Shown here: one piece after another, positions 18,976 through 61,234 of the stretch
Layout of the letters: each line of letters opens with the position of its first letter
How positions within the stretch are numbered: the first letter of the stretch is position 1
DNA from: a virus
DNA length: 64,000 bases
Virus record (IMG/VR): IMGVR_UViG_3300021091_005158
Span: 6,070-70,069 of that record
Reading direction: 5' to 3' (one strand)
Position numbers and translations under genes: made by a program
Notes under the pieces: model-generated
The model's input: the letters and a program-made list of their open reading frames with translations, nothing else
What the model was told of the DNA's origin: nothing
Database searches by the model: none

Positions 18976-20271
18976 ATGTACTATATAGTCGAAACTATAG
19001 AACAATTAAAACATCTTCCAAAAACAAATCAATGTTTTATAGATCTAGTTTCACTTTCCGAAGAAACCCACCCACTACTAACATCTCCATGCGTCCTGTA
19101 TTATAACGATTTTAAAAAAGGATACATTTTTCCTATAAACCATTCTGAAGGGTTTTCCTTAAGTCTTGACGATATACAAAATTTAATTTTTGATATTAAA
19201 AAAGTATATTTACTAGATAAAAAATGGCATTCTTATTTTTTTCATATTCCGCAAGGAATAGATCTGTATTTTAATATCCTAGATAAAGCAGGAGAAATAA
19301 AAGATCTCCAATTTAATACACCCGTACATCTTGACTTTTATAATAAGTTTAAATATAAAGAGCAAGTAAATACTCTTATACCTATTTCAAAGCATTATGA
19401 AAAGAGTGAATCTATATTTGAAACAGTTAAGAGCTATGTAGGATCTGAAAACGATCAGAAATGGCAAAATGAGTATGTCGAAGCCTATAAATGGGTAGAA
19501 GAACAAGGTATAACAGTAAATGAACGGGTATTTGATAAGTTTTTTGAACCTACATGGAAGGCTAGATCTTTTAAAGATAATAGAATCTATACAAGCTACA
19601 ACCTTTATAATATTACTTCTAGACCTACTAATGCTTTTAATGGAATTAATTTTCTTGCTTTAAATAAAGAAAATGGTTCTAGAGCAAGTTTTATACCTCA
19701 AAATGATATCTTAATTGAATTTGATTTTGATGGTTATCACATAAGGTTAATAGCTAACATGTTAAACGTACCGCTTCCCTCTGACGAATCTATACATGTA
19801 ATACTAGGTAAGCAATACTTCGGAAAGCAAGAACTATCACCTGAAGAGTACCAAGAATCTAAGAAAATAACCTTCAGGCAACTCTATAACGGAATCGAAG
19901 AGAAATATAAAAATATAGAGTTGTTTTTTAAGGTTGATCAGTTACTAGAAGCAGTATGGGTAAAATATAAAAGAAATAGTTTTTTAGAACTACCAAATAA
20001 AAGAAAATTAAAGATAGAGAATGCTAACCCGCAAAAACTTTTTAATTACTATGTTCAATGCCTAGAAACTGTTAATAACGTAAAAAAGCTAAATGATTTA
20101 CGTATATTATTCAAAGGTAAAAAAAGCAAAGTAATTTTAATAGTTTACGACTCAATTCTTGTTGACTATTCAACTGAGGACGGAAAAGGATTTCTAAAGC
20201 AAATAAAAGAAGTGCTAGAACAAGATGGATATAGGGTTAAAGCACAAAAAGGATACAACTATAACTTTTAG
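18976..20271 (+). CDS. Compact family-A DNA polymerase paralog (431 aa)
   Basis: TSRPTNAFNGINFLAL (cf. TGRLSSSDPNLQNIP), EFDFDGYHIRLIANML (motif A, DYSQIELR-like), KKITFRQLYNG (O-helix-like) and VYDSILVDY (motif C, HDE-like), with Pol I-like spacing. Confidence 0.5.
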   Translation: MYYIVETIEQLKHLPKTNQCFIDLVSLSEETHPLLTSPCVLYYNDFKKGYIFPINHSEGFSLSLDDIQNLIFDIKKVYLLDKKWHSYFFHIPQGIDLYFNILDKAGEIKDLQFNTPVHLDFYNKFKYKEQVNTLIPISKHYEKSESIFETVKSYVGSENDQKWQNEYVEAYKWVEEQGITVNERVFDKFFEPTWKARSFKDNRIYTSYNLYNITSRPTNAFNGINFLALNKENGSRASFIPQNDILIEFDFDGYHIRLIANMLNVPLPSDESIHVILGKQYFGKQELSPEEYQESKKITFRQLYNGIEEKYKNIELFFKVDQLLEAVWVKYKRNSFLELPNKRKLKIENANPQKLFNYYVQCLETVNNVKKLNDLRILFKGKKSKVILIVYDSILVDYSTEDGKGFLKQIKEVLEQDGYRVKAQKGYNYNF

Positions 20272-20292: not shown

Positions 20293-20712
20293 ATGGCATA
20301 CATTGAATTAACGCAGGAACAATTGAAAAATAAGTTATTTTGTACGTTTTCTCCTAAAAACAAGCTAGAAGATACATTAGCTATAATCCAGAAAGAGTAC
20401 TCAATAATGTACAGTAAGATCTTTGTGCTTGAATCTTATGATTCTGAAGAGCTTCTGTGTACTTATAATATTGAAGTTGAAAATTCCACTACAAAAGTTT
20501 TACCTAATACAATTCTTTTACATCGAAAGAAAGAGACAAATACGTTATATACTATTAACAGTCTTAATCTTCTTATAAAATCACTTAACGAAGGTGTACT
20601 TGATATATCATTTAGAATAAACTGGAATGATTTCAGAAATACTGTCCTCCTTTCTCAAGGCGACGAACTTAAAAAGCTTTCCACAAAGATTCACAAAATA
20701 ATCAATCTATAA
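20293..20712 (+). CDS. Hypothetical protein
   Basis: ORF only; no recognizable motif. Confidence 0.25.
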   Translation: MAYIELTQEQLKNKLFCTFSPKNKLEDTLAIIQKEYSIMYSKIFVLESYDSEELLCTYNIEVENSTTKVLPNTILLHRKKETNTLYTINSLNLLIKSLNEGVLDISFRINWNDFRNTVLLSQGDELKKLSTKIHKIINL

Positions 20713-20778: not shown

Positions 20779-21582
20779 ATGGGTATGGATTTAGGCGCAA
20801 TTAAGTCTAAACTAACCGCCTTGCAAAATCAAAGGCAAAGCGGTCAAAAGAGAGATATGTCTCTTATTTTATGGAAACCGTCAATAGGTAAGCATGTTGT
20901 CCGTATTGTTCCGGCTTTATGGGATAAATCAAATCCTTTTAAAGAGGTAATGTTCCATTACGGTATTGGAAACAAGGTAATGCTAGCCTTAACTAACTAC
21001 GGGGAAAAGGATCCTATTGTAGAGTTTTCCAAACAGCTTGCTTCTAGCGGCGATAAAGAGAACTGGATTATGTCTCGTAAATTAGAACCAAAGATGCGTG
21101 TATTTACTCCTGTTATCGTACGCAGCGAAGAAGAAAAAGGTGTACGCCTTTGGGAATTCGGCAAGCAAATTTATGCTGAATTATTAAGTCTAGCTGATGA
21201 TCCTGATATCGGAGACTTTACTGACATTATTCAAGGCCGCGATATAACTATCGAAACCACCGGGCCTGAAACTAACGGTACTTCTTTTAACCAATCGAAA
21301 GTACGAGTACGTACAAAAACAACACCACTATCTGAAGATTCAAAAGAGGTAGAGAAGTGGCTAGCAAATCAACCGGATTTATTTAGTAGTTTCAGGAAGT
21401 ATAGCTACGAAGATATGAAAGAAGCCCTACTTGGATGGTTGAATCCAGAAGAAACCTCTGAAGAGCTTCCTCCTACCGCTAAACAGGAAGCTACACCTCC
21501 TGCAAAACCAAGCTCTCTTTCTCTAAATACTCCAAAGGCTAAACCTAGCATTGACGAAGAATTCGATGATCTATTTAAGTAA
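20779..21582 (+). CDS. Putative ssDNA-binding protein with acidic C-terminal tail
   Basis: C-terminus ...SIDEEFDDLFK resembles the acidic interaction tails of SSBs (gp32-like); lies immediately upstream of the recombinase gene. Confidence 0.3.
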   Translation: MGMDLGAIKSKLTALQNQRQSGQKRDMSLILWKPSIGKHVVRIVPALWDKSNPFKEVMFHYGIGNKVMLALTNYGEKDPIVEFSKQLASSGDKENWIMSRKLEPKMRVFTPVIVRSEEEKGVRLWEFGKQIYAELLSLADDPDIGDFTDIIQGRDITIETTGPETNGTSFNQSKVRVRTKTTPLSEDSKEVEKWLANQPDLFSSFRKYSYEDMKEALLGWLNPEETSEELPPTAKQEATPPAKPSSLSLNTPKAKPSIDEEFDDLFK

Positions 21583-21588: not shown

Positions 21589-22665
21589 ATGGTTAAACTA
21601 GCTAAAGCCTCGTTAAACGAAAGTATAGCGGGAGCTGTTAAAGGTACTTTTAATTTAGAAAAGTTTATTCAATCTAAAAATCTTTCAAGTACCTCAATAA
21701 AAATGAAAGAGCAAACTTGGATTCCTTTATCAAAGGCTTTTCAAGACTGTCTTTCTATCCCCGGTATTCCGGTTGGGCATATCTCGTTGCTACGTGGACA
21801 TTCAGATACTGGTAAGACTACTGCTCTTTTAGAAGCTGCAGTTAGCGCTCAAAAGACTGGTATCTTACCTGTATTTATTATTACTGAGATGAAATGGAAT
21901 TGGGATCATGCTAAGCAAATGGGACTTGTATTCGAAGAAGTCCCTAACGAGGAAGGTGAGGTTGCTGATTACAAAGGGTTTTTTATTTATATAGATAGAG
22001 AAAGACTAAATACTATCGAAGATGTAGCAGCATTTATTGCAGATCTTCTTGATGAACAAAAGAAAGGTAATCTACCCTACAACTTACTGTTTCTTTGGGA
22101 TTCAGTAGGATCTATTCCTTGCCGTTTATCAGTCGAGTCTAATAAAAATAATAATGAGTGGAATGCAGGTTCTATGTCACAGCAGTTTGGTAATTTTATC
22201 AATCAAAAGATTGTTTTATCACGCAAACAAAGCCAACCTTATACTAATACTATGCTTGCGGTTAATAAAATCTGGGTTGCTAAAGCTGAGAATATTATGG
22301 CCCAGCCTAAGATGAAAAATAAAGGCGGTGATACAATGTATTTTGATGCTTCTCTAATTATTACTTTTGGTAATGTAACTAATTCAGGAACTAATAAGAT
22401 TAAAGCAACTAAGAACGGAAAGGACGTTGAATTTGCTAAACGTACTAAAATAAGTTGCGATAAGAATCACGTAAATGATGTTACATCTACTGGACGGGTA
22501 ATTATGACTGCTCATGGCTTTATTGATGATACAAAACAAGCAATTGATGCTTATAAGAAGCAATATTCAAAAGATTGGCTTAAAACTCTTGGCTCTAAAG
22601 ATTTCGATGTAATTATTGAAACTGACGAAGATAACAAAGACGTTTTTGATCCTACTGAAGAATAG
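21589..22665 (+). CDS. RecA-family recombinase/ATPase (UvsX/Sak4-like)
   Basis: Walker A GHSDTGKTT and Walker B-like FIYIDRE; RecA-fold length. Confidence 0.5.
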   Translation: MVKLAKASLNESIAGAVKGTFNLEKFIQSKNLSSTSIKMKEQTWIPLSKAFQDCLSIPGIPVGHISLLRGHSDTGKTTALLEAAVSAQKTGILPVFIITEMKWNWDHAKQMGLVFEEVPNEEGEVADYKGFFIYIDRERLNTIEDVAAFIADLLDEQKKGNLPYNLLFLWDSVGSIPCRLSVESNKNNNEWNAGSMSQQFGNFINQKIVLSRKQSQPYTNTMLAVNKIWVAKAENIMAQPKMKNKGGDTMYFDASLIITFGNVTNSGTNKIKATKNGKDVEFAKRTKISCDKNHVNDVTSTGRVIMTAHGFIDDTKQAIDAYKKQYSKDWLKTLGSKDFDVIIETDEDNKDVFDPTEE

Positions 22666-22690: not shown

Positions 22691-24088
22691 GTGACAAGAA
22701 TAAACTTAGGTATACCACCTAAAGAACTAACAAATAAGCATCTTATTGCTGAACATAGAGAGTTAAAACGTATACCGAACGTTGTAGCTAAAGGTAGATT
22801 TAATCTTAGTAGTATACCTCAAGAATTTAGCTTAGGAAAAGGTCATGTATCTTTTTTCTACGATAAATTAGGGCATTTAAAAGAGAGGTATATTGAATTA
22901 TACAACGAATGCATATCAAGAGGATTTAATGTACAGAATTACTTAAAGTCATGGGACTGTATACCTCAAGAGTTAATGAACGGTTATACGCCTACCGAAA
23001 AAGATATTCATATAATACGTGAAAGGATAGCGGACAGGCTTGCAAATCCAATCGCAAAACAAAAAAAAATGGACTACAGGAAAATCTTTGAACAGATGGA
23101 GAAGCAAGAGCCGGTAGAGTTACATAAGAATAGTAGAGTACTTATTGTTGATTCTTTAAATACTTTCCTTCGTAGCTTTACAGCTATTAGTCATATCAAT
23201 CTAAGCGGGGCACATATCGGAGGTTTAGGGGGATTTTTAAAATCTATAGGGTCTCTGATAAAACAATTGCATCCGACAAGAGTTATTTTAGTGTTTGACG
23301 GACAAGGGGGGTCTACTAACAAGAGATATCTTTATCCAGAGTATAAAGCTAATAGACATATTACAAAAATTTCTAATTGGGATGCTTTTGACGACCAAGA
23401 AGAGGAGTCAGAATCGATAACTGCTCAAATAGTACGTCTAATTGATTATCTCAAATGTCTCCCTGTTGATCTCGTAGTCGTAGATAAAATTGAAGCTGAC
23501 GACGTAATAGGCTTCTTAACAGGGAAATTTAAAGATAAAGTATTTATTATATCGACTGATCAAGATTACCTCCAATTGGTAAAGAAAGATGTTACTGTTT
23601 TCAGTCCAGTAAAGAAAATTATTTACAACCCATATCAAGTCCTGACCGATTACGGTATACCACCCCATAACTTTTTAACCCATAAAATTATAGTAGGGGA
23701 TAAAGGAGATAACGTACCTGGGGTAAGAGGTATAGCAGCAAAAACCCTTATAAAATTATTTCCTGCGATTGCAACTGAAGATAGATTTACTATAGAGGAA
23801 CTGATAAAGGAGTGCGAAGGAAAAGATAAGAAGTATGCTAACATTTATAACTTCAGAAATCAACTTCTTATAAATAAACAGTTAATGGACTTAGAGAATC
23901 CAAATATTCCCGATTCCGATAAGTTAGCTCTTGAAAATATTGTTGCAAATCCTAAAAATAATTTCGACCCTAATTGTTTTGTAAGATTATACAAAGAAGA
24001 TCAGCTAGGAAAAACATTGCTAAATCCTCAATTATGGCTTAATGAAACTTTTGCAAAATTAATTCAATATAAGTTAAAAGATCAATAA
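22691..24088 (+). CDS. Fusion protein: T4 endonuclease V-like pyrimidine-dimer DNA glycosylase (N-terminal) + 5'-3' flap endonuclease (FEN/RNase H-like)
   Basis: GTG start. MTRINLGIPPKELTNKHLIAEHRELKRIP...GKGHVSFFYDKL...RGFN tracks T4 DenV (MTRINL...HLMAEYRELPR...GAGHVTFFYDKL...RGFN). Continues in frame into VLIVDSLNTFLRSF... and HhH-like FEN motifs. Confidence 0.6.
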   Translation: MTRINLGIPPKELTNKHLIAEHRELKRIPNVVAKGRFNLSSIPQEFSLGKGHVSFFYDKLGHLKERYIELYNECISRGFNVQNYLKSWDCIPQELMNGYTPTEKDIHIIRERIADRLANPIAKQKKMDYRKIFEQMEKQEPVELHKNSRVLIVDSLNTFLRSFTAISHINLSGAHIGGLGGFLKSIGSLIKQLHPTRVILVFDGQGGSTNKRYLYPEYKANRHITKISNWDAFDDQEEESESITAQIVRLIDYLKCLPVDLVVVDKIEADDVIGFLTGKFKDKVFIISTDQDYLQLVKKDVTVFSPVKKIIYNPYQVLTDYGIPPHNFLTHKIIVGDKGDNVPGVRGIAAKTLIKLFPAIATEDRFTIEELIKECEGKDKKYANIYNFRNQLLINKQLMDLENPNIPDSDKLALENIVANPKNNFDPNCFVRLYKEDQLGKTLLNPQLWLNETFAKLIQYKLKDQ

Positions 24089-24107: not shown

Positions 24108-25481
24108 ATGAGTGTTTTAAATCAGCTGAACCAGTACGGCGTAAGCTTTCAAATAAAAGTCCTATCTAGTCTTCTTAAGCATAGAGAATTTCTGCTTAGT
24201 ATATTCGATATTCTCGAAGAAGACTATTTCGATAATCCAGCTCATAAATGGATTGTAGAGGAAATTTTAAAATACCATTATAAATTTCATACTACACCAA
24301 CACTAGATGTATTAACTGTAGAAATAAAAAAAATTGAAAATGAAATACTGAAAGTATCTGTAATTGAGCAATTAAAAGAGGCTTATAAAGCATCAAACGA
24401 AGATAGAGATTTTGTTGAGCAAGAATTTTCTAACTTCTGCAAAAATCAGCAGTTAAAAAAAGCATTACTATCATCTGTTGAATTACTCGAAAAAGGTCAA
24501 TATGATGATATTCGTTACCTTATTGATACTGCCCTTAAGGCGGGTCAAGATAAAAATATTGGCCACGAGTATGAAAAAGATGCTGAGACTCGTTATAGAA
24601 CGGAAGAGAGAAGCCCTCAACCTACTCCATGGGAGCATATAAACGGGCTACTACAGGGCGGATTAGGTTCAGGGGATTTAGGTATTATATTCGGCAATCC
24701 CGGAGGGGGTAAGAGTTGGATGCTCGTAGCTTTAGGAGCAATGATAGTTTCAAGCGGAGGGACTGTAGCTCACTATACTCTCGAACTTTCAGAAACATAT
24801 ATGGGTAAAAGATATGACTCTATATTTACTGGTATAAGAATTCAGGATCTTTACTTACATAGAAAAGAAGTAGATGAAGCAGTCAGCAAACTGCCCGGTA
24901 AACTTATTATCAAAGAATTTACTATGGGTAAAGCATCTATATCTACTATTGAGAGTCATATTCAGAAACTTACTGATCTAGGAAACAGACCTAATCTCAT
25001 TATTATTGACTATGTTGATCTTTTGAAATCAAAAAGAAAATCAGTTGAGAGAAAAGACGAAATAGACGATATTTATGTTTCAACTAAAGCCTTGGCTAGA
25101 GATTTAAAGATTCCTGTTTGGACCGTATCTCAAGTAAATCGAGCTGGCGCAAAAGATGATGTAATAGAAGGAGATAAGGCTGCTGGTAGTTATAATAAAA
25201 TAATGATTGCAGACTTTGCGATGTCCTTGTCTAGGAAGAGGTTAGATAAAGTTAACGGTACAGGTAGAGCACATATTATGAAAAACCGTTATGGAGGGGA
25301 CGGTATGACATATCCTGTAAAAATTAATACTGAAAATGGGAATATCGAGATACAATCACGTGAGATGGGCGAAGAAGAGTTTGTTCAGGAAGGTGCTGCA
25401 GTACCTATGAAGCCTGTTACTAGATTTAGTGCAGAAGAACGAAATTTTTTACAGCAAAGGTTTTTTGAATTAGGGAAATAA
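24108..25481 (+). CDS. DnaB-family replicative helicase
   Basis: Walker A GIIFGNPGGGKSW; IIDYVDLL; SQVNRAGAKDD (H4 arginine-finger region). Confidence 0.75.
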   Translation: MSVLNQLNQYGVSFQIKVLSSLLKHREFLLSIFDILEEDYFDNPAHKWIVEEILKYHYKFHTTPTLDVLTVEIKKIENEILKVSVIEQLKEAYKASNEDRDFVEQEFSNFCKNQQLKKALLSSVELLEKGQYDDIRYLIDTALKAGQDKNIGHEYEKDAETRYRTEERSPQPTPWEHINGLLQGGLGSGDLGIIFGNPGGGKSWMLVALGAMIVSSGGTVAHYTLELSETYMGKRYDSIFTGIRIQDLYLHRKEVDEAVSKLPGKLIIKEFTMGKASISTIESHIQKLTDLGNRPNLIIIDYVDLLKSKRKSVERKDEIDDIYVSTKALARDLKIPVWTVSQVNRAGAKDDVIEGDKAAGSYNKIMIADFAMSLSRKRLDKVNGTGRAHIMKNRYGGDGMTYPVKINTENGNIEIQSREMGEEEFVQEGAAVPMKPVTRFSAEERNFLQQRFFELGK

Positions 25482-25815: not shown

Positions 25816-27672
25816 ATGGATATTTCCCGGAGTATCTTAAGTGACATTACCGTGTATATGAAATACGCGAAATTCAATCAAGAGCTAAAAAAAAGAGAGA
25901 CCTGGCGTGATTTAGTTGATAGAAATAAGCAAATGCACTTAAAAAAATTTCCTAAGTTAAAAAAGGAAATTGAAGATGCTTACATTTTTGTTTATAATAA
26001 AAAGGCTTTACCTTCAATGCGCTCTATGCAGTTTGCTGGCAAGCCTATTGAAATTAGCCCTAATCGTATATATAATTGTGCTTACTTACCTATAGATGAT
26101 TGGCGTGCTTTTGGCGAAACGATGTTCTTACTTCTTGGCGGTACTGGAGTAGGCTACTCTGTACAAAAACATCACGTCGATAAACTACCTGAGATTAGAA
26201 AACCTGACCCTAAAAAACATCGCCGTTTTTTAATTGGTGATAGTATTGAAGGTTGGGCTGATGCTGTTAAGGTATTAGTGCGAACTTACTTCGAAGGCGG
26301 ATCCACACCGGTATTTGATTTTTCTGATATAAGACCTAAAGGCACACAATTAATTACATCTGGTGGTAAAGCGCCTGGCCCTCAACCTCTAAAAGAATGT
26401 TTACTTAAGATTCAAGGAGTTTTAGATAGCAAGGAGGATAACGAAAAATTAAATCCTATCGAGGTTCACGATATTGTATGTCATATAGCAGATGCAGTAC
26501 TAACAGGGGGTATCCGTAGAGCTGCTTTAATTAGCCTTTTTAGCGCCGACGATGAAGACATGATTGCTGCCAAGTCTGGTGCATGGTGGGAACGCCATCC
26601 TCAAAGAGGTCGCGCTAATAATTCTGCTGTACTTTTACGTAGCAAGGTTACTGAAGAGTTTTTTACAGCACTCTGGGATAAAATTAAAGCATCGGGAGCT
26701 GGCGAGCCCGGGATTTATTTTAGCAACGATAAAGATTGGGGAACTAACCCGTGCTGTGAAATCGCTTTGCGTCCTTATCAGTTTTGTAACTTATGCGAAG
26801 TAAACGTTTCTGACGTTAATGATCAAGAAGATCTAAACCAAAGAGTTAAAGCAGCAGCATTTATAGGTACCCTGCAGACTTCTTACACCAATTTTCACTA
26901 CTTACGTCCTGTATGGCAGCGTACGACTGAAAAAGACGCATTAATTGGAGTAGGTATGACGGGGATAGGTTCGGGTGCGGTACTGAAATTAGACCTCAAA
27001 CAAGCAGCTCAGGTCACAAAAGAAGAAAATGAAAGAGTTGCTAAGCTGATCGGTATTAATCCTGCTGCAAGATGTACTACTATCAAACCCTCCGGTACCT
27101 CTTCCTTAACCCTAGGGACATCAAGCGGTATTCATGCATGGCACAATGATTACTATATTCGTAGGGTTCGTGTAGGTAAGAATGAAGCTATTTACTCATA
27201 CCTTTCAATCTATCATCCAGAGCTTGTTGAAGACGAGTATTTTCGTCCTCACGATACAGCAGTAATTTCTGTTCCTCAAAAAGCACCTGAAGGATCTATC
27301 TTACGTCATGAATCGGCTTTGCAATTGCTAGAAAGAGTTAAATTTTTCTATCAGCACTGGATAAAACCCGGTCATAGAACTGGACAGAATACTCATAATA
27401 TCTCAGCAACAGTTTCAATTAAGGATAACGAATGGGATGAAGTAGGCAAGTGGATGTGGCAAAATCGCAAATTTTACAACGGATTATCAGTACTTCCATT
27501 TTCTGATCATACCTACAAACAAGCACCTTTTCAAGATTGTTCAAAAGAACAATACGATGAACTTATAAAGAGTTTGAATGATATTGACTTATCAAAGGTA
27601 GTAGAATTTTTTGATACTACAAATCTTATGGGAGAGTTAGCATGCGCAGGAGGGGCTTGTGAAATCGTATAA
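25816..27672 (+). CDS. nrdJ: Class II (adenosylcobalamin-dependent) ribonucleotide reductase
   Basis: Active-site NPCCEIAL (the N-x-C-x-E of RNR) and GGTGVGYS; a monomeric NrdJ-like length with no glycyl-radical motif. Confidence 0.65.
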   Translation: MDISRSILSDITVYMKYAKFNQELKKRETWRDLVDRNKQMHLKKFPKLKKEIEDAYIFVYNKKALPSMRSMQFAGKPIEISPNRIYNCAYLPIDDWRAFGETMFLLLGGTGVGYSVQKHHVDKLPEIRKPDPKKHRRFLIGDSIEGWADAVKVLVRTYFEGGSTPVFDFSDIRPKGTQLITSGGKAPGPQPLKECLLKIQGVLDSKEDNEKLNPIEVHDIVCHIADAVLTGGIRRAALISLFSADDEDMIAAKSGAWWERHPQRGRANNSAVLLRSKVTEEFFTALWDKIKASGAGEPGIYFSNDKDWGTNPCCEIALRPYQFCNLCEVNVSDVNDQEDLNQRVKAAAFIGTLQTSYTNFHYLRPVWQRTTEKDALIGVGMTGIGSGAVLKLDLKQAAQVTKEENERVAKLIGINPAARCTTIKPSGTSSLTLGTSSGIHAWHNDYYIRRVRVGKNEAIYSYLSIYHPELVEDEYFRPHDTAVISVPQKAPEGSILRHESALQLLERVKFFYQHWIKPGHRTGQNTHNISATVSIKDNEWDEVGKWMWQNRKFYNGLSVLPFSDHTYKQAPFQDCSKEQYDELIKSLNDIDLSKVVEFFDTTNLMGELACAGGACEIV

Positions 27673-39143: not shown

Positions 39144-39706
39144 TAAAAGTTCAAGAAAACTGGGGAATACTAATATCTCAGACCGGATCCGAGATTATTG
39201 CTATAGCTAAAGAAACCGGGTTTCTCCCTAGTCTCCTTGTTACTAATAGATTAAGTAAGATATCTGATGATAACCTGAGATTCTTTGGAGAAAATAGTGT
39301 AACAATAAAGACAATACCGTTTAAGCCTGTATTAAAAGATTATCTTTTTCCTGAACTACTTGAAAAAAAGCTAATTACTTTACATGGATTTTTGAGAATA
39401 TTACCTACTGGGTTTTTTAGTGAATACAAAGGCAAAATTTATAACGGTCATCCTGCACTCATTACTCGCTATCCTGAATTAAAAGGCTTTAATAAACAAG
39501 AAGATATTGTTAAAAATCATGAAAAGTACCCCGTTTGCGGCTCAGTAATTCACGAAGTAATTCCGGAATTAGATTCAGGGGAAGTTATAATAACAGCTAG
39601 TATCGAAAATACCGCAAAAACTGTAGACGAAGCATATTCTATTTTACGGACTACGTCTCTTCTTACTTGGGTAGAATTTTTTAAGAATACTTGGACCTTT
39701 CAGTAA
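39140..39706 (+). CDS. PurN/Fmt-type formyltransferase (candidate preQ1 N-formyltransferase)
   Basis: NGHPALITRYPELKG (N-x-H-P-[SA]-L-[LI] catalytic Asn/His) and HEVIPELDSGEVI (cf. GART HFVTEELDGGPVI catalytic Asp). Confidence 0.65.
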   Translation: MIKVQENWGILISQTGSEIIAIAKETGFLPSLLVTNRLSKISDDNLRFFGENSVTIKTIPFKPVLKDYLFPELLEKKLITLHGFLRILPTGFFSEYKGKIYNGHPALITRYPELKGFNKQEDIVKNHEKYPVCGSVIHEVIPELDSGEVIITASIENTAKTVDEAYSILRTTSLLTWVEFFKNTWTFQ

Positions 39707-39734
39707 ATATTCATATATTATATAAAATATTTAA

Positions 39735-40244
39735 ATGAAAATATTACTTGGATCTCACGGGACCGGAAAAACTACCTTACTTAAAGAGGTTGCTACTAAT
39801 TATCCCGGGTATTATGTTACTGATGGTTTCTCAAGACCTGTTATTAAGATAGGCAAGCAGCTGGAATTATCAGGTTATGAAAAGCAATACGTAATAAATG
39901 AACTATCTGCTTGGGCTTATCAAAATTACTTAACACATAAAAATGTAATTAGTACTCGAAGTATTGTTGATTGTATTATTTACTCCCAAATTTTAGCCCC
40001 TAATCTTGATATTGAAAACCTTATTACTCTATTTGAAGAAACTAAAGATCAAGTAGAACGTTTTTTTTATATACCTGTTGAGTTTGATTTTGAAGCCGAT
40101 CCTGATCGCTTAAGTCAAGAATTGCAATTAAAAATAGATCAAGTTATAAGAGAATTTATGATAAATTATATTCCTAAAGAAAAAGTAGTTATATTAAAAG
40201 GTACAGTAGAAGAACGTTTAAAATCGATATCCTTATATCTTTGA
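39735..40244 (+). CDS. P-loop NTPase (putative nucleotide/nucleoside kinase)
   Basis: Walker A GSHGTGKTTLLKEV at the N-terminus; small (169 aa) kinase-like size. Confidence 0.4.
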   Translation: MKILLGSHGTGKTTLLKEVATNYPGYYVTDGFSRPVIKIGKQLELSGYEKQYVINELSAWAYQNYLTHKNVISTRSIVDCIIYSQILAPNLDIENLITLFEETKDQVERFFYIPVEFDFEADPDRLSQELQLKIDQVIREFMINYIPKEKVVILKGTVEERLKSISLYL

Positions 40245-40247
40245 ATT

Positions 40248-40958
40248 ATGAGTAGAGATAAACATATTAAAATTGAAAAACTAGAGCTTGCACAAGCTGG
40301 CCATGCTAACGGTATTAGTACTTTTTTGCGAGACGCAATTAAAGAAGGAAGAAATTGTTTAACTGAAGGTGAAAAGAAGCTTATTATTGAAGCTGCTTCT
40401 TTACATTACGGCAATTTTCTAACTGCTTTAGGAGTTGACTGGGAAAACGACCCTAATAGCTCGAATACTCCTATGAGAGTGGCTAAGGCCTACGTAAACG
40501 ACTTATGGAAAGGTAGATATGAGCAGCTAGATTCTGTGACTAGCTTTCCGGCTGACGGTTATGACGGAGTAGTATTTGAAGGAGGTATCCCTATTACGAG
40601 TATGTGTAGTCACCATCATCAGACTATTAACGGCCTGTGTCATATCGCTTACGTGCCGACCCTTAAAAGTAGGGTAGTAGGTCTAAGTAAACTTAACCGA
40701 ATTGTAGAGCATTTTAGTAGAAGAGGTTCAATTCAAGAACAATTAACTGTAGCTATTCATAATGCTGTAGATAAAATTTGCGAAGATAATATTGGTGTTG
40801 CAGTAATGATTGAAGCAACTCATAACTGTGTAAGCTGTAGAGGTGTAAAGCATCAAGGTGCTAATATGAAGACCTCTAAGCTATCAGGATGCTTTTTAGT
40901 AGAAGATGCTGCACGAGCTGAATTTTATGAGTTTATTAAAGGTTACCCTAGGAAATAA
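40248..40958 (+). CDS. folE: GTP cyclohydrolase I (FolE)
   Basis: SMCSHHHQTING (cf. the CEHH zinc motif, Glu->Ser) and HNCVSCRGV (second zinc-Cys region); T-fold length plus an N-terminal extension. Confidence 0.65.
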   Translation: MSRDKHIKIEKLELAQAGHANGISTFLRDAIKEGRNCLTEGEKKLIIEAASLHYGNFLTALGVDWENDPNSSNTPMRVAKAYVNDLWKGRYEQLDSVTSFPADGYDGVVFEGGIPITSMCSHHHQTINGLCHIAYVPTLKSRVVGLSKLNRIVEHFSRRGSIQEQLTVAIHNAVDKICEDNIGVAVMIEATHNCVSCRGVKHQGANMKTSKLSGCFLVEDAARAEFYEFIKGYPRK

Positions 40959-41988: not shown

Positions 41989-42168
41989 ATGATAATAGTA
42001 AATATAAATGGCTCAGTTGAACATGCTTTGAAGCAATATAAAAATAAACATAATAAAATAGGAATAATAAAAGAATTAAGAGATAGAAAGACCTTTATTA
42101 AACCTTCAGTTAAACGTAGAACTGAAATTTTAAAGGCTCGATACGTAGAGTCTAAAAAAATAAAATGA
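41989..42168 (+). CDS. rpsU: Phage-encoded ribosomal protein bS21
   Basis: Unlisted 59-aa ORF MIIVNINGSVEHALKQYKNKHNKIGIIKELRDRKTFIKPSVKRRTEILKARYVE..., matching the S21 pattern (V...E.aLkrFKr...k.Gi..E.RrR..F.KPs..Rr). Confidence 0.65.
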   Translation: MIIVNINGSVEHALKQYKNKHNKIGIIKELRDRKTFIKPSVKRRTEILKARYVESKKIK

Positions 42169-43184
42169 AGATAGATAAATATAATAAGCTAAGAGTAAAG
42201 CTTGAGGTGCATAAGCTTGAGCAAAACTATTTTACTTTAGATAGAATACTCTACTACTTTTCTTTTCTTGGTAATATATTCCTTATTTACTTTGGATACT
42301 TTTTTGTAAAGTCAATTACTGATAGTATCCCTCCTTTATTTCCTTTTCAGGATACTTTTTTTGCTATTTTCGTAGCACTTTTCCTTACTGGCTATGAACT
42401 AACTAAAAGGTTTGTCTTAGAACAATTGTCAATTAGCATTTTGCAAATAAAAAAATTTACTTATTCTATAGCTGTAGGATCAGTTATTTTTATGGGATTA
42501 ATGGCAGGAAGCTTCTACCTATCAATAAAAGGAGCTCATAGATTAATTGATGATTCAGAGACTATTCAAACCACTCTTGAAACTAGTATTTCATTGAAAG
42601 CCGATTCTATTGCGAAATATTACGATAAAGAGATTAATTATTACAGAACCCAGCCTTCTAAGTCAAGGGTAGATAGACAATATAGGGATTCAATAGTTGC
42701 TTCCCTGCAAAAAAGTAAAGAGACGAAATTAAACGAAATAGAGGATAAGTCTAAAGAAAAAACGGCTAGCAAGCTGGACGTAAGTAGCGAGAATTCAACA
42801 GCATTTTTCTTTATAACTGTATTTTTGGAATTATTAATCTTAGTAGGCGTAGGTTTTAACGCATACTATACTATAGGGAGTTACGACGAAACTAAGAAAC
42901 TCCTACAAACTCCCAAATTCAAGCAGTTGGAGCTTAACTTAAAACTACTTAAATTGTACTATCAAAACGGTAAGAAGTTAGCTGGTGACCCTACTCTATC
43001 TTTCAGCAAATTTCAATCTCTTGTACAGACTGCAGGCTTATACTGCTTTCAGAAAGACCTAAAAGCGTTTACTACTTTATGTCAAGAGCTCGAAATCGCT
43101 AGAGAGTCTAGGGGTAGAAAAAAAGAGTTAACTATGTCTTACGATCAAGCAAAAAAATTGATAGAAAATCAAGAAGGTTTTTAA
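42165..43184 (+). CDS. Membrane-anchored coiled-coil protein
   Basis: N-terminal TM helices (ILYYFSFLGNIFLIYFGYFFV ...) and a long helical Lys/Glu-rich C-terminus. Confidence 0.3.
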   Translation: MKIDKYNKLRVKLEVHKLEQNYFTLDRILYYFSFLGNIFLIYFGYFFVKSITDSIPPLFPFQDTFFAIFVALFLTGYELTKRFVLEQLSISILQIKKFTYSIAVGSVIFMGLMAGSFYLSIKGAHRLIDDSETIQTTLETSISLKADSIAKYYDKEINYYRTQPSKSRVDRQYRDSIVASLQKSKETKLNEIEDKSKEKTASKLDVSSENSTAFFFITVFLELLILVGVGFNAYYTIGSYDETKKLLQTPKFKQLELNLKLLKLYYQNGKKLAGDPTLSFSKFQSLVQTAGLYCFQKDLKAFTTLCQELEIARESRGRKKELTMSYDQAKKLIENQEGF

Positions 43185-45493
43185 TGCAGCAAAAAAGTTA
43201 TGTTATAGTAAATAATAAAGAAACGTTAAAAGAGTTAGTTCAGCATATAGCAACTAGCGAGTACGTAGCGTTAGATACTGAAACCGATAGTTTGAATCCT
43301 AGAAAGGGTCGAATTATCGGCTTTTCTATTTCTGGTGAAGTAGGTAAAGGTTACTATATGCCTATAATGGTATGGAATACTGATAGACTCGAAGAAGTAG
43401 TTATTGAAGGAAAAAACGCTAACGTTTTAGCTAAATATGTTATTAAGCAATTAATAGGGAAGAAAGTTATTTGTCATAACGCTTCTTTCGACTTACGTTA
43501 TATAGAGAATTTTTACGGAATTAACTTGTTAAATTATTTGCATGCTGATACTTCTCTACTTGTGCATACAGTAAAAGAAGAAGGAGCATTTGGATACGGT
43601 AATCCTTTTGGATTAAAAAGTATTGCTATAATGGTTCAAAAGGAAATCGGTTTAGATGTAGAAACTGAAGCTAATGAAGAACAAATAGCTCTTAAAGAGA
43701 GTATAAAAGCAAATGGCGGTTCAACTTCTAAGGAGAATTATGAGATATACAAAGCTGATTTAGTGGTACTATCAAAGTATGCAGCAGCCGATACCGACTT
43801 GACGCTACGTATCTATCATCACTTTTACAAAATATTAGTAGAGGAAGGTCTTGAAAAGTTTTTCTTTGAAGACGAGGTGATGCCTGTTTATAGAGAGGTT
43901 ACTATACCGATGGAGAAACACGGTATTAGATTAGATATCTCTCTTATTAAAGAAACTAAAGATAGAATAACTAAAGACCTCGAAGTGCAGGCAACAGCAG
44001 TACTCAAAGAGTTATTAAAAGAGCCTAAAGTACGCAAATGGATTATTGATCAAGCGGTAGAAGCGTATCCTCCAAAAAGCAAAGGTATATTTGCCCAACG
44101 TCTACTCGAGCAAAATAATATCGATCTACCTAAATCAAATAAGACAGGTAAATTTACTATAAATAAAGCGGCTATATTAGCTCTATCTCCTTCTACTATA
44201 AAGGATTACTTGATGACTGGTGATATAGAAAATCTCACTAAAGATCAAATTGTTAAAGTTAGTTTATCTTTATGGAAAGAGGATAATGACGGCCAGTTCT
44301 TTAATATACAGTCTAAAGATCAAATGGGTAAGATAGCTTTTGATGTATTAGGTGAGAAATCGATTTCAACAACTACTAAAGGAAAGGCTCAATTTGACGA
44401 AGATATGATCCAATCCATAAAGGACAAATATTTATGGGCAAATCATTTACGCTTATACAATAAACTTACTAAAATTAAAACTGCATACGTAGATCGATTT
44501 TTTGATTCAGCTGAGGATGGTAGATTTTATCCTTATTTCAAGCAGAACGGTACTGTATCAGGAAGATACGGATCAGATATGCAGCAGTTGCCTAAGCCAC
44601 TAGAGCCAGGTCAAGAGGAAGATTTAATTATTGGATATACAAACCTTGTAAGAGCTTTCTTTATTGCTGACGAAGGCACTAAGATACTTGATACTGATTA
44701 TGCATCTCTGGAACCTCGGGTATTTGCTACAGTAGCAGGTGATCAAGGTCTGAAAGATATTTTTAATAATGATTTAGATTTTTATTCTCATATTGCTATA
44801 AAAACCGAAAAGCTTGAAGGAGTAAGTGCCCATACCAAAGCTCCTAATTTTCTTAAAAAAATAGATCCCGTCAAAAGACAGACTGCAAAAGGTTATGCGT
44901 TAGGTGTACCGTACGGAATGTCCGGATATGCCCTAGCAATGTCGTTAGGAGTAGATAGGAAAGAAGGAGAAAGACTTGTAGAAGGTTACTTAGATGGATT
45001 TCCTGAATTAAGAAAGTGGAGAGAGAATTCTAGAAAGTTTGTTAAAGAGAACGGCTATATTAAGAATAAGGTAGGTCGAATCAGGCATTTGCCACAGGCT
45101 AAGGAAATCTATTCTGCCCTAGGGGATAGGCTTATTGAAGACTGGAGGTTTAGAAAAGATTTGGAGAGAGAGTATGGAGTAGAGTACACAACTGGTTTGT
45201 ATAGAGATTATAAAAATGCACTTAACAACTGTTTAAACTTTCAAATTCAGAGTTATTCAGCAAGCATAGTAAACCGTGCAGCCCTACAAATCAATAGGAG
45301 ATTCAAGGGAGAAGGCATTAGAGGGCAGGTAATTTGTCAAATTCATGACCAACTAGTATGCCAAGTTAAAGAAGAAGACGTAAAACGTGCATGCGAAATA
45401 GTACAAGACTGTATGGAGAATACAACTAAGCTAGAAGGTGTGCAACTTATTGCCGATCCGGAAGTTTCGGTTAATTTTCGTGATGGACACTAG
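43184..45493 (+). CDS. polA: DNA polymerase I (family A) with 3'-5' exonuclease domain
   Basis: Exo I VALDTETDSL; SGRYGSDMQQLP; motif A ILDTDYASLEPRVFA; motif B RQTAKGYALGVPYG; motif C QIHDQLVCQV. Confidence 0.85.
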   Translation: MQQKSYVIVNNKETLKELVQHIATSEYVALDTETDSLNPRKGRIIGFSISGEVGKGYYMPIMVWNTDRLEEVVIEGKNANVLAKYVIKQLIGKKVICHNASFDLRYIENFYGINLLNYLHADTSLLVHTVKEEGAFGYGNPFGLKSIAIMVQKEIGLDVETEANEEQIALKESIKANGGSTSKENYEIYKADLVVLSKYAAADTDLTLRIYHHFYKILVEEGLEKFFFEDEVMPVYREVTIPMEKHGIRLDISLIKETKDRITKDLEVQATAVLKELLKEPKVRKWIIDQAVEAYPPKSKGIFAQRLLEQNNIDLPKSNKTGKFTINKAAILALSPSTIKDYLMTGDIENLTKDQIVKVSLSLWKEDNDGQFFNIQSKDQMGKIAFDVLGEKSISTTTKGKAQFDEDMIQSIKDKYLWANHLRLYNKLTKIKTAYVDRFFDSAEDGRFYPYFKQNGTVSGRYGSDMQQLPKPLEPGQEEDLIIGYTNLVRAFFIADEGTKILDTDYASLEPRVFATVAGDQGLKDIFNNDLDFYSHIAIKTEKLEGVSAHTKAPNFLKKIDPVKRQTAKGYALGVPYGMSGYALAMSLGVDRKEGERLVEGYLDGFPELRKWRENSRKFVKENGYIKNKVGRIRHLPQAKEIYSALGDRLIEDWRFRKDLEREYGVEYTTGLYRDYKNALNNCLNFQIQSYSASIVNRAALQINRRFKGEGIRGQVICQIHDQLVCQVKEEDVKRACEIVQDCMENTTKLEGVQLIADPEVSVNFRDGH

Positions 45494-45601: not shown

Positions 45602-46039
45602 ATGACAGCACTTTTTCGTGCGTTCGAGCTCGATCCGTTTGACTTGCTATGGAAAGACCTAAAAGAAGCACAAGCACATTTTTCTGCAATTACGCAGAGA
45701 GTAACCCATCCTGTTGATATTTTCGAAACTAAAAGCGGTATTCGTTTTGAAATAGCCGCAGTAGGCCTTAGTGTCGAGGATATTCTTATTTCTGTTGAGA
45801 ATGATTCTCTTAGAATTTGTTACGATAAACCTGCACAACAGGAAGAAAATCATCCAATTTATAAGGGTATTAAGAGATCAAGTTTTGATCTTACTTGGAA
45901 AATTTCAACTAAGTTCGACTTAAGTAACCTTGAAGCATCTCTCGATAAAGGTCTTTTGACTTTAAATATACCAATTGCTGTAGGTAAAGCTACTCGAAAA
46001 ATTTCTATTACTACACCTAAAGCTTTTCTTGAGAATTAA
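45602..46039 (+). CDS. Small heat-shock protein (Hsp20/alpha-crystallin family)
   Basis: Alpha-crystallin-domain pattern: ETKSGIRFEIAAVGLSVEDILISVENDSLRI...RSSFDLTWKIS...LDKGLLTLNIP. Confidence 0.6.
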   Translation: MTALFRAFELDPFDLLWKDLKEAQAHFSAITQRVTHPVDIFETKSGIRFEIAAVGLSVEDILISVENDSLRICYDKPAQQEENHPIYKGIKRSSFDLTWKISTKFDLSNLEASLDKGLLTLNIPIAVGKATRKISITTPKAFLEN

Positions 46040-46046
46040 ATAAGTA

Positions 46047-46060
46047 GCCTACTAAGTACC
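46047..46060. repeat. Right arm of the 14-bp inverted repeat flanking the Hsp20 gene
   Basis: gcctactaagtacc. Confidence 0.7.
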
Positions 46061-46064
46061 AGTT

Positions 46065-46253
46065 ATGTTTACACTTACTAAGCAGTTTATTCCATTTAAT
46101 AGCAAACTCTTTTTAATTAAAAAAATTATTAAGGAAGATGATTTTCCCGTAATAGAAGTCTGGAAAGAGTATCTTCAGGCCGATACAATATTAAAGAAAG
46201 AAGGATTACTTTATTTTTTAGTAACAGTTGAAGATTTGGAGATTATTTCTTAA
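46065..46253 (+). CDS. Hypothetical small protein
   Basis: ORF only. Confidence 0.2.
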   Translation: MFTLTKQFIPFNSKLFLIKKIIKEDDFPVIEVWKEYLQADTILKKEGLLYFLVTVEDLEIIS

Positions 46254-46273
46254 ATTAAATTAAAATAAAAAGT

Positions 46274-46645
46274 ATGTCGAAGTTACAACCGTTAAATGGG
46301 TATTTAATTTTAAGACCTATAGAAGAAGAGGAACAAATGTATGGTAATATTGTTATTCCAGATTTAGGAAAAGAGAGGCCTGAGATGGGAGAAGTGATTG
46401 CTGTCTCTGCTACGTATAATTTTAATTCTGATAAACTAGTACTTTCAAATCTTGAATTAGGAGACAAAGTTCTTATCCCTAAACTAGGTTCTCTAAGAAT
46501 CACTGTAGAAAGCGAAGAATATTTTATTTGCAAAGAGCAAGACGTCTACGCAAAATTAAGCGGACAATTAAGTGTTTTATCAGTTCTTAAAGAGACAGTA
46601 GTTGATCCTGATTTTGAAAAATACAACAACAGTAAAGTATCATAA
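46274..46645 (+). CDS. groES: Co-chaperonin GroES
   Basis: LQPLNGYLILRPIEEEEQ...GNIVIPD matches GroES (kPL.DRVlvkr.E.E..t.gGI.lP). Confidence 0.7.
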   Translation: MSKLQPLNGYLILRPIEEEEQMYGNIVIPDLGKERPEMGEVIAVSATYNFNSDKLVLSNLELGDKVLIPKLGSLRITVESEEYFICKEQDVYAKLSGQLSVLSVLKETVVDPDFEKYNNSKVS

Positions 46646-46646
46646 A

Positions 46647-48269
46647 ATGACAACAACAGTATTTGGAATTGAATTAAAAAATAAGTTACTTGCGGGTATT
46701 AAAAAATTAAATGAATCGGTAACTTCCACTTTAGGGCCAGGAGGCCGTACAGTGTTAATTAAAGAAAAATCTGGCGAAGTAAAAGTAACTAAAGACGGAG
46801 TTACAGTAGCTCGTTCCTTTCACGAACTTGAAGACCAGGTTGAAGACCTTGGTGCCCAGCTAGTAAAGCAGGTATCCATAAAGTCTGCTAATGAAGCAGG
46901 AGACGGAACTACTACCTCTACTCTTCTTGCTACAACAATGGTTGAAGAAGGATTAAAGCTTATTAATCAAGGATCTAACCCAGTAGAGGTTAAGAAAGCT
47001 ATTGAGGTTTACGTAAAAGAAGTTATCGATAACTTAAAAAAAATATCGAAAGATATTTCCTCTCAAGATCAAATTCGTCAAGTAGCAGCTATCTCTGCAA
47101 ATAACGATATTGAGATAGGCAATCTAATATCAGCTGCTATTGAAAAAGTAGGAAGAGAAGGTATTGTTACTATTGAAGAATCTAAAACAGGTGAAACTGC
47201 TTTGGAGATAGTAGAAGGTATGCAGTTTGATAGAGGATACAAATCCCCATACTTCGTTACTAATAATACTACAATGCATGCAGTCTTGAATGAACCTTAT
47301 ATTCTTATTTACGATGGCCGTATCACTAAAGCTGCTGATATTTTAAATTCGTTAACTAAAGCCAACTCCGATCAAAAAGCTTTACTAATAGTAGCTGAAG
47401 ATATAGAAGACGAAGCGCTTGCTACTTTGATAGTAAATAAAATGCGCGGTATAGTTTATGTAGCAGGAGTAAAAGCTCCTGACTTTGGGGAACGCCGTAC
47501 TTTAATCTTAGAAGATCTAGCTATTTTAACCGGGGGACAGGTAATTTCTAAAAATAAAGGACATAAACTAGAGAAAATAACCCCGTTACAGTTAACGGAA
47601 TTTTTCGGAGTCGCAAGAACTGTTACGGTATCTAAAGAAACCACTACTATAGTTGATGGCAAAGGTAATATAGATGCTATAAGCTTAAGAGCTGAAGAGA
47701 TAAAAGATCAAATTGAAAAAGCTACATCATTTTATGAGAAAGAAAAGCTTCAGGAGAGGCTTGGTAAATTAGTTGGCGGAGTAGCTATTATTTCAGTAGG
47801 AGGAAATTCCGATATTGAGATTAAAGAAAAGAAAGATAGGGTAGAAGATGCTTTGTTTGCTACTAAAGCAGCTCTAGTAGAAGGCGTAGTTCCTGGTGGA
47901 GGACTTGCATTAATTACAGCATTCGAAAATATTAAATTACCTTTAACATCAAGCGATGAGCAAAAAGGTTGGAATATAGTTAAAAGAGCTTGTCATGCTC
48001 CTTTCAAAGTAATTTTAACAAACTGTGGTATTGAAGATCACTACCGTATTTTAAGTGAAATTAAGAATTATGAAAGTCAAGAATCAGCTCACACTTATGA
48101 TGCTAAAAATCAAAAAGTAGTAGAGGCAACTGAAGCAGGTCTTCTTGATCCGACTAAAGTCACACGTACTGCTCTTGAAAATGCTGCCTCCGTAGCAGGT
48201 ACTATACTAACAACAGAATCAGTAATTTTCGAAAAAAAAGACGATAAGAAAAAAGATGAAGAAATTTAA
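46647..48269 (+). CDS. groEL: Chaperonin GroEL
   Basis: [17 protein letters not shown] and GGGLAL motifs. Start placed at MTTTVFG (46647), just after the GroES stop; the listed ORF start at 46602 overlaps GroES. Confidence 0.85.
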
Positions 48270-57050: not shown

Positions 57051-57051
57051 A

Positions 57052-58365: not shown

Positions 58366-58604
58366 CATCTAAAGAATTTACTACCTGGTTAAAAGGATTT
58401 TCTAAAGCAGCTAATTCGTACAATATTACTCCCGAGCAATGGGATACTATTCTAGAAGAACTTAATAAAGTACAAGACACGTTGTCTTTTCCTGATTATA
58501 GTCCTAAGCCTAATGCAACATCAGATATGCCCGAACCTATAAAGATTTGGCATTCTACTAACACTAATCTACTTCTAAAAGATAAAACGCTACTGAATGA
58601 CTGA
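58362..58604 (+). CDS. Hypothetical protein
   Basis: ORF only. Confidence 0.25.
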   Translation: MTSKEFTTWLKGFSKAANSYNITPEQWDTILEELNKVQDTLSFPDYSPKPNATSDMPEPIKIWHSTNTNLLLKDKTLLND

Positions 58605-59040
58605 TCAGATGATAATATGCCCTAAATGTGGATGCGACGGCTGCTACGTAACACCCATAAACGAAACTAAATTTAATTATTTCTGCTGGGGATGTGGCTT
58701 TCAGACTAACGATTTAATGAAGCAAGGAGAGTTTAATTTTGAAGAATACGAAGAAACTCTACCTGAACTTTATAAGGATACTAAATTTGTAGATAATCAA
58801 CAGAGAGTATGGTATCCAATTAGTATCAACATATCCGATAGAGGCACTGTTTTTCTGAATGGAAAGACTAAAGAAGAAACGCAATGGTCGGCTATTAAAG
58901 TAATTCCTTTAACCGAGGAAGAAAAAAAGCAACCGAAGTATAAAAATTTATCCTATAAATCTGATGCTAAATCAATCAAGCACTTTGGAAGTGATTTTAT
59001 AGAAGCGTGTGATTATATTGGAGTATTTAATCAAGAATAA
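58597..59040 (+). CDS. Zinc-ribbon protein
   Basis: CPKCGCDGC ... CWGCGF. Confidence 0.35.
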   Translation: MTDQMIICPKCGCDGCYVTPINETKFNYFCWGCGFQTNDLMKQGEFNFEEYEETLPELYKDTKFVDNQQRVWYPISINISDRGTVFLNGKTKEETQWSAIKVIPLTEEEKKQPKYKNLSYKSDAKSIKHFGSDFIEACDYIGVFNQE

Positions 59041-60586: not shown

Positions 60587-60587
60587 T

Positions 60588-61223: not shown

Positions 61224-61234
61224 AACTATACAAA

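Follow-up and report, generated by a model that had tools for sequence, protein, structure and literature searches.

A compact family-A DNA polymerase homologue of the divPolA1 type heads a phage replication module and is followed by a co-conserved small protein

A divergent family of compact relatives of family-A DNA polymerases was described computationally in 2024 by Yutin et al. (Virol J 21:200, PMC11348598), who named it divPolA1 from 14 genomes, its type being gene 1 of Flavobacterium phage vB_FspM_immuto (160 kb; immuto below). According to the accessible parts of that paper, divPolA1 has conserved palm residues, a truncated thumb and replaced exonuclease aspartates, and it occurs in phages with genomes of 155-190 kb, in a conserved replication neighbourhood. 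The same parts report a regular PolA, PolB or PolC encoded near GroES/GroEL in these phages and call the role of these regular polymerases less obvious given divPolA1. No other paper mentioning divPolA1 was found in the literature searched. Here we analyze a gene for a protein of 431 amino acids (aa) in a 64,000-nucleotide (nt) stretch of viral DNA, positions 6,070 to 70,069 of IMG/VR record IMGVR_UViG_3300021091_005158 (the window). By homology and gene order, the gene is a new member of divPolA1 (Table 1).

The nearest cultured phage is immuto. In a tblastn comparison, the window protein is 35.1% identical to immuto gene 1 over residues 1-422 (E 5e-73; 98% of its length), and the two phages share the downstream replication genes as well as a regular polymerase beside GroES/GroEL. 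Its features follow the published description: the palm is kept, the thumb is truncated and the exonuclease aspartates are replaced. With only about 35% identity to the type, the window copy belongs to a metagenomic radiation that extends far beyond the 14 genomes. A search of a database of 5.8 billion proteins gave 1,934 relatives at E <= 1e-3, counted as clusters at 90% identity, and the best 120 of the 1,934 are all 429-435 aa long. Representatives of 50%-identity clusters were searched exhaustively with HMMER, which gave 1,071 proteins, of which 491 have E <= 1e-30. Full-length proteins (evident fragments excluded) have about 410-465 aa among the 150 listed from this search, and about 400-465 aa over all relatives listed. 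We confirmed divPolA1 in at least 587 IMG/VR stretches; contigs that carry a homologue reach 189 kb in length, and the clusters come from freshwater and marine metagenomes. Since there are about 1,900 clusters at 90% and more than 1,000 at 50% identity, divPolA1 appears to belong to the core replication genes of phages that are very abundant as a group. The ORF (open reading frame), which begins with ATG, has the same boundaries as in a first-pass annotation of the window made from its sequence alone, and its start codon is right, because homologues share the beginning MYYIVET or MYFIIET.

All residue counts given here derive from an alignment of 87 family members, which reaches down to 30% identity to the window protein. 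The hhalign comparison of this alignment with the Klenow sequence (identical to 1dpi_A) matched window residues 200-418 to Pol I 651-908 (Prob 95.6%, E 1.2e-8). The four polymerase motifs quoted in the first-pass annotation all fall on the matching Klenow motifs: TSRPTN is equivalent to TGRLSS, with R216 at R668; EFDFDGYHIRLIA is equivalent to motif A, with D250 at D705; KKITFRQLYNG corresponds to the O-helix, and VYDSILVDY to motif C. When the family profile was searched against PDB with hmmsearch, the Klenow fragment was the first match (E 1.1e-9), and the enzymes of Bst, Taq, Aquifex and the apicoplast came next. Polymerase evidence from the single sequence is weak, because its match to Pfam DNA_pol_A (PF00476; E 5e-4, 19.5 bits) stays under the gathering score of 34.3 bits and phmmer against PDB gave only a chance match to flavohemoglobin; but 44 of the 87 family members match DNA_pol_A individually (best E 6.5e-13). 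In PHROGs only a weak match to phrog_5995, annotated as 'DNA polymerase', was seen (E 0.005), and NCBIfam had no match for the protein, for the partner described below or for three further unknown ORFs. AlphaFold2, run on the family alignment, predicts with confidence a compact Klenow-type fold (predicted local distance difference test, pLDDT, 96.2; predicted template modelling score, pTM, 0.93). A structure search of BFVD found only full-length phage PolAs and no compact relatives, and T7-like single-subunit RNA polymerases with their N-terminal or specificity elements were not the closest similarity. The idea of a genuine compact family-A polymerase homologue is thus borne out by profile, predicted fold and conserved palm residues alike.

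The conservation pattern points to a maintained active site. Invariant across the alignment (87/87) are R216, D250, K296, Q361, E364 and D392, which include the equivalents of Klenow R668, D705, K758, Q849 and D882, so both palm carboxylates are present in every homologue. H32, K83, N132, P136, H255, F300, Y304, Y391 and D397 are conserved in at least 90% of the sequences; F300 (at F762) is found in 83 and Y304 (at Y766) in 85, P217 and N225, of the same motif as R216, in 86 each, and N357 (at N845) in 63. As judged from the alignment, both metal-binding Asp residues and the Lys, Phe and Tyr of the O-helix are under strict purifying selection, and palm and fingers are kept together with the residues that by homology are metal ligands and contacts to DNA and deoxynucleoside triphosphate (dNTP). 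Other positions have changed throughout the family. Position 255, at E710, is His in 85 sequences and Gln in two; position 393, at E883, is occupied by Ser in 62 sequences and by Ala in 24; divPolA1 thus lacks the steric-gate Glu and the motif C Glu of family A. Position 391, at H881, is Tyr in 86 of the 87. In the O-helix pattern RxxxKxxxFxxxY the Arg position (292, at R754) is Tyr in 63 sequences and Arg in five. In PMC10520511, catalysis by Klenow is ascribed to D705, D882 and E883, the steric gate is E710 (E658 in Bst), and both E710 and E883 are counted among the residues active in substrate binding or catalysis; the activity or substrate choice of divPolA1 may therefore be unusual. These four substitutions, the 139-aa partner and the Microcystis phage carrier described below are additions to what the accessible text of Yutin et al. 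reports.

The first ~160 residues hold a complete exonuclease-fold domain. The first-pass annotation had seen almost no room for exonuclease or thumb domains, which is right for the thumb and not for the exonuclease fold; it was also right that the DxE of exo motif I is missing. Since hhalign covers the polymerase domain only, the register of the DEDD residues was set by hand and checked in two ways. With DxE placed at the end of strand 1, position 23 is a mixture of E/D/Q/N and position 25 is Ile in 74 of the 87 sequences; in the register of a weak BLAST high-scoring segment pair with the regular PolA of the window, position 28 is N/S/D and position 30 is N/E/R/K. The equivalent of D424 is variable, YxxxD of exo III is mostly YxxxE, and the equivalent of D501 is not conserved. 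Because the DEDD positions are unconserved in either register, the proofreading site is gone, which was also the conclusion of Yutin et al. (2024), and none of the 87 family members matches Pfam exo1. The domain nevertheless evolves under constraint, with a conserved set of its own, comprising H32 (86/87), K83 (83), N132 (83), P136 (84), K139 (76), E142 (74) and H140 (65). This pattern suggests a retained but different function, which may lie in contacts with the partner, with the primer end or with some further protein of the replisome.

The loss of the thumb is seen in both alignment and model. In the hmmsearch match, profile positions 167-197 correspond to Klenow-fragment residues 202-232 and positions 204-427 to residues 324-583, so that the jump from 232 to 324 spans about six query residues and Klenow-fragment 233-323 (~90 residues, Pol I about 556-646, the thumb) has no counterpart. 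In the AlphaFold2 model, the part from H183-189 to E218-221 contains no long helices. With ~90 Klenow residues unmatched and these helices missing, the thumb is absent. The fingers, counted on the hhalign alignment from motif B to N845, are ~26 residues shorter than in Klenow.

The polymerase gene is followed by an ORF of 139 aa, which starts 21 nt after its stop codon with no terminator-like site between them. We examined 80 IMG/VR loci, of which 73 reach at least 500 nt beyond the polymerase gene and could be tested for this partner; it is directly downstream in all 73 (median spacing 52 nt). The partner shares 56% identity with immuto gene 2 and 40% with its homologue in Microcystis phage Mel-JY01, and at every locus it is better conserved than the polymerase (mean 59% versus 42%). 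It has 3,000-4,000 relatives and a nearly invariant core, NTILLHRKKETNTLYTINSLN, and it had no match in Pfam, NCBIfam or PDB sequences, the last searched with the partner profile as well. Its predicted fold, from a structure prediction built with database proteins, is unlike clamps, thioredoxin and other known processivity factors. A fusion of polymerase and partner was sought and found in none of the 80 loci, where stop-to-stop lengths are 352-464 codons. In a promoter and terminator scan, hits near the pair stayed below shuffled expectation, and no terminator was found between the two ORFs.

A T4-like block of tail and baseplate genes (for sheath, tube, baseplate and a tail protein of 1,409 aa) ends 56 nt before the polymerase gene. 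This gene had been placed next to the virion module, and it does directly follow the tail genes, but it is itself the first gene of the replication module. Behind it on the + strand come the 139-aa ORF, a gp32-type single-stranded DNA (ssDNA)-binding protein, a UvsX-type recombinase, a 5'-3' exonuclease (FEN) and a DnaB helicase, in keeping with the conserved replication neighbourhood that Yutin et al. (2024) describe. Over the length that the individual contigs cover, immuto, Mel-JY01 and the 80 IMG/VR loci agree with the window in gene order, both upstream and downstream. The window corresponds to immuto coordinates from about 146 kb, across the record end, to about 50 kb. The recombinase also matches Pfam RecA (E 1e-5, 25.6 bits), slightly under the 27-bit cut-off.

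The regular family-A polymerase of the window (769 aa) is encoded outside this module. It was described earlier as canonical, with an intact proofreading domain, and DxE, NxxxD and YxxxD can indeed be read in its translation; it keeps the motif A Glu and the HD of motif C and is 55% identical to the PolA of immuto. In motif C it has HDQ in place of HDE, and its residue equivalent to Klenow F762 is Leu, as in several phage and actinobacterial PolA subfamilies (Czernecki et al. 2023). Homologues of Hsp20, GroES and GroEL directly follow it (45602-48269, +), as they do in immuto, which is the setting near GroES/GroEL that Yutin et al. (2024) found for regular polymerases of divPolA1 phages. A 339-aa ORF (42165-43184, +) may be translationally coupled to the regular PolA, as both share base 43184; neither this ORF nor a 779-aa ORF (28603-30942, +) has a Pfam, PHROG or NCBIfam match. 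In BLASTP the 431-aa and 769-aa polymerases show nothing significant (best E 0.46), and in Mel-JY01 (190 kb) the compact gene, 30% identical and in the same module, occurs beside a regular polymerase of family B and clamp-loader genes. On both counts the earlier proposal that the compact protein is a paralog of the 769-aa PolA is not supported. Its co-occurrence with PolB in Mel-JY01, and with PolA, PolB or PolC in the genomes of Yutin et al., points to an old, separate lineage. DnaG-type primases, 37% identical to each other, are encoded in both immuto and Mel-JY01, and none was found in the window, which covers only part of its genome; with DnaG in both phages, we rejected the idea that divPolA1 replaces a missing primase.

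Known enzymes close to divPolA1 include Klenow and the Taq and Bst large fragments, in which motifs 2, A, B, 6 and C have the same order and spacing. Taq and Bst also keep a catalytically dead exonuclease-fold domain, as divPolA1 does. Compared with Klenow, divPolA1 is ~170 residues shorter, has no thumb at all and has E710, R754, H881 and E883 replaced; compared with complete Pol I, the 5'-3' exonuclease is a separate gene, three ORFs away. The CcPol-MP or PolA-SSB primases of SCCmec and other mobile elements of Bacillota (Bebel 2020, Rice 2023) are compact family-A enzymes with a reduced exonuclease region and thumb, and they share with divPolA1 an adjacent small protein and a helicase in the same block. 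The predicted fold of the divPolA1 partner, however, is not the ssDNA-binding oligonucleotide/oligosaccharide-binding (OB) fold, the helicase, at a distance of four genes, is of DnaB type, the exonuclease-fold domain has not been truncated and is complete, DnaG coexists with divPolA1 in related phages instead of being replaced, and the carrier is a large lytic myovirus rather than an integrative island. TV-Pols (Iyer, Abhiman, Aravind 2008) are, like divPolA1, minimal family-A-related proteins of viruses and mobile elements with two palm Asp residues and a conserved Arg hairpin; they have a two-helix thumb, RxxxK in the fingers and never a nuclease domain, whereas divPolA1 is thumbless and has YxxxK and an exonuclease-fold domain. 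As described in the same paper by Yutin et al. (2024), divPolA2 of barbaviruses is another second, divergent PolA beside a regular polymerase that, like divPolA1, lacks a canonical thumb and an active exonuclease.

Taken together, these features are tentatively read as those of an active, non-proofreading and poorly processive auxiliary DNA-dependent DNA polymerase for short synthesis, to which we give a probability of roughly 0.45. The protein would be made from the first gene of a replication-recombination operon, probably together with the 139-aa protein. It would extend primers, or displacement loops (D-loops) made by UvsX and gp32, at initiation, and it would fill gaps after the separately encoded 5'-3' exonuclease has removed primers or damage. 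divPolA1 and FEN would then be comparable to a bacterial Pol I divided into two genes, with divPolA1 as the Klenow half. The interchangeable regular polymerase, which in the window is the 769-aa PolA, would carry out the bulk of genome synthesis, in a division of labour such as that between bacterial Pol I and the replicase. Pol I with 24 residues deleted at the thumb tip is still active, but less processive and less faithful (Minnick 1996, cited in PMC10061031). As removal of the thumb tip already lowers processivity, divPolA1 is probably distributive, and its synthesis may be error-prone. Short-patch synthesis would be the most economical role, given that a proofreading polymerase (clamp-loaded in Mel-JY01) and DnaG always stand alongside.

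Several points weigh against this assignment. The regular polymerase comes from different families in different phages, whereas divPolA1 and its partner are strictly conserved, which suggests a role more central than gap filling. In principle, gaps could also be filled by the regular PolA with FEN, or by Pol I of the host. The model leaves the conserved polar residues of the exonuclease-like domain (H32, K83, N132, H140 and E142) unexplained, and the alignment shows four important residues replaced family-wide (E710 by His, R754 by Tyr, H881 by Tyr and E883 by Ser or Ala). The loss of E883 is less telling in this respect, because the regular PolA of the window also lacks it, so that this Glu does not strictly define family A. 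No biochemistry on divPolA1 members was found in the literature searched.

The more central role could be that of the true replicative polymerase, with the 139-aa protein supplying the thumb or processivity and the regular polymerase left to repair or other tasks. divPolA1 heads the module and has its partner, better conserved than itself, at 73 of 73 loci; the gene of the regular polymerase, by contrast, has chaperonin and nucleotide-metabolism genes around it, and its family differs from phage to phage. A replicase with neither proofreading nor a thumb would, however, have to copy 155-190 kb, the partner's predicted fold is unlike known processivity factors, the PolB and clamp-loader genes of Mel-JY01 make up a complete processive set, and the 769-aa PolA of the window has intact exonuclease and polymerase motifs, so that we consider this reading unlikely. 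Somewhat more doubtful is a two-subunit enzyme of divPolA1 and its obligate neighbour with non-canonical chemistry, capable of primer-independent or ribonucleotide-tolerant synthesis at origins or D-loops. The partner would then provide a thumb in trans, and the His/Tyr/Ser site would alter the handling of sugar or triphosphate. It is improbable, judging by analogy, that divPolA1 is a PolA-derived primase or non-canonical polymerase resembling CcPol-MP; divPolA1 would then, with its partner, start chains de novo or use ribonucleotides. The arrangement of a compact PolA, an obligate small ORF behind it and a helicase within the block would fit such a primase, as would the changes from the steric-gate Glu to His and from the motif C Glu to Ser, motif C of T7-type RNA polymerases being HDS. 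There is also a precedent in a family-A polymerase with a truncated exonuclease and short thumb that acts as a primase with a small adjacent protein beside a helicase (PMC7581432; PMC10061031). Yet both cultured carriers have a DnaG-type primase, and the bulky His could still serve as a steric gate.

The first-pass annotation had proposed a polymerase specialised for modified templates, or for translesion synthesis or priming. Read as a specialisation for DNA with 7-deazaguanine or ultraviolet (UV) damage, the proposal has some appeal: an enzyme that has lost proofreading and has a reshaped active site, in a window with a full 7-deazaguanine pathway and a FEN fused to a pyrimidine-dimer glycosylase, is consistent with such a role. 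This reading is no less improbable than that of a primase, and none of our results speaks directly for translesion synthesis or priming. divPolA1 lies in the replication block, away from the modification genes, and FEN lacks the glycosylase part in all 52 related IMG/VR loci where it is present. Mel-JY01 has divPolA1 and the partner and no QueC, QueD, QueE, QueF, FolE or DpdA homologue at E <= 1e-3 in its whole 190 kb genome, so divPolA1 is not tied to 7-deazaguanine and a specialisation for such templates is not supported. Modification of the DpdA type (Dpd system) is, moreover, post-replicative and needs no special incorporation step. More improbable still is that divPolA1 is a pseudo-polymerase with no catalytic activity, retained for a structural or regulatory task in the replisome, for example as a DNA-binding or assembly factor. 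This would accommodate the loss of E710, R754, H881 and E883, of the thumb and of the exonuclease site, and the conserved non-catalytic polar residues of the exonuclease-like domain could form an interaction surface; but the metal-binding Asp pair, the O-helix Lys, Phe and Tyr and the equivalents of R668 and Q849 are invariant or nearly so down to ~30% identity, which is hard to explain without catalysis. The other suggestion of the first-pass annotation, a decaying duplicate of the 769-aa PolA, can be regarded as refuted. The shorter length and the missing DxE are all that would favour it; there is no pairwise similarity between the two, there are 1,934 homologues (1,071 representatives at 50% identity), of which the full-length ones listed have about 400-465 aa, the predicted fold is confident and compact, synteny is kept across phages of Bacteroidota and cyanobacteria, and the invariant and near-invariant catalytic residues in 87 sequences rule out a decaying gene.

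A natural family-A polymerase able to work with neither a thumb nor a proofreading site would redefine the minimal functional core of Pol I, and divPolA1, with its two catalytic Asp residues and a His at the steric-gate position, could be of use as a small enzyme. If the two-subunit reading were true, divPolA1 would be a second independent conversion of a family-A DNA polymerase into an initiating polymerase, in abundant aquatic myoviruses. The family counts thousands of database members, compared with the 14 genomes of Yutin et al. (2024); the partner gene offers an experimental handle, and immuto a cultured system.

Table 1. Positions in the window of divPolA1, its motifs, the replication module and other features
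Feature	Position	Strand	Evidence or remark
divPolA1-type compact family-A DNA polymerase homologue, 431 aa	18976..20271	+	
N-terminal 3'-5'-exonuclease-like domain, about aa 1-160, without DEDD catalytic residues	18976..19455	+	
Start of polymerase domain (aa 161-199; E175, G178 conserved) and site of thumb loss (about aa 190-203)	19456..19584	+	
TGR(L)SS...N motif, TSRPTNAFNGIN; R216 = Klenow R668	19615..19650	+	hhalign
Motif A, LIEFDFDGYHIRLIA; D250 = D705, H255 at E710 (steric-gate) position	19711..19755	+	hhalign
Motif B / O-helix, YQESKKITFRQLYNG; Y292 at R754, K296 = K758, F300 = F762, Y304 = Y766	19849..19893	+	hhalign
NYYVQCLET; N357 = N845, Q361 = Q849	20044..20070	+	hhalign
Motif C, LIVYDSILVDY; Y391 at H881, D392 = D882, S393 at E883	20137..20169	+	hhalign
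Co-conserved 139-aa partner ORF	20293..20712	+	21 nt downstream of divPolA1
gp32-type ssDNA-binding protein	20779..21582	+	Pfam gp32 E 2.9e-11, PHROG 1192; syntenic where loci reach
UvsX/RecA-type recombinase	21589..22665	+	PHROG 97 E 1.6e-15; syntenic
5'-3' exonuclease (FEN) with N-terminal pyrimidine-dimer glycosylase domain	22691..24088	+	5_3_exonuc_N E 2.7e-29; FEN syntenic
DnaB-type replicative helicase	24108..25481	+	Pfam DnaB_C E 1.1e-20; syntenic
QueD	31170-31634	+	
QueE-like	32807-33643	+	
QueC	36570-37460	+	
DpdA-like protein	37457-38236	+	34% identical to immuto DpdA, no Pfam match
QueF	38226-39143	+	
Formyltransferase	39140-39706	+	
FolE	40248-40958	+	
Regular family-A DNA polymerase, 769 aa, outside the module	43184..45493	+	DNA_pol_A E 8.9e-59, exo1 E 8.3e-17

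The glycosylase domain of the window FEN matches Pfam Pyr_excise over aa 1-83 (E 4.5e-13), and the FEN of immuto, with 340 aa, has no such domain. It seems that a UV-repair glycosylase was joined to the flap nuclease in this lineage specifically.

The 7-deazaguanine gene set of the window is complete (31170-40958, +), and QueC, QueD, QueE, QueF, FolE and DpdA are found in both the window and immuto. The presence of QueF suggests a DNA base of the preQ1 type. The window also encodes a class II (B12-dependent) ribonucleotide reductase (25816-27672, +), which is 67% identical over its full length to the Mel-JY01 protein; the replication genes nearby are merely 26-46% identical to their Mel-JY01 counterparts, and immuto has class I NrdAB at this position. 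By sequence comparison, this suggests a recent exchange of the reductase between distant phages. Sugar- and methyl-modifying genes lie at 511-3814 and 55605-63355 (+), among them a C-methyltransferase, a 2-oxoglutarate-Fe(II) oxygenase and several glycosyltransferases, and an NAD-dependent epimerase is encoded at 35109-36056. The sugar- and methyl-modifying clusters resemble those in immuto and Mel-JY01.

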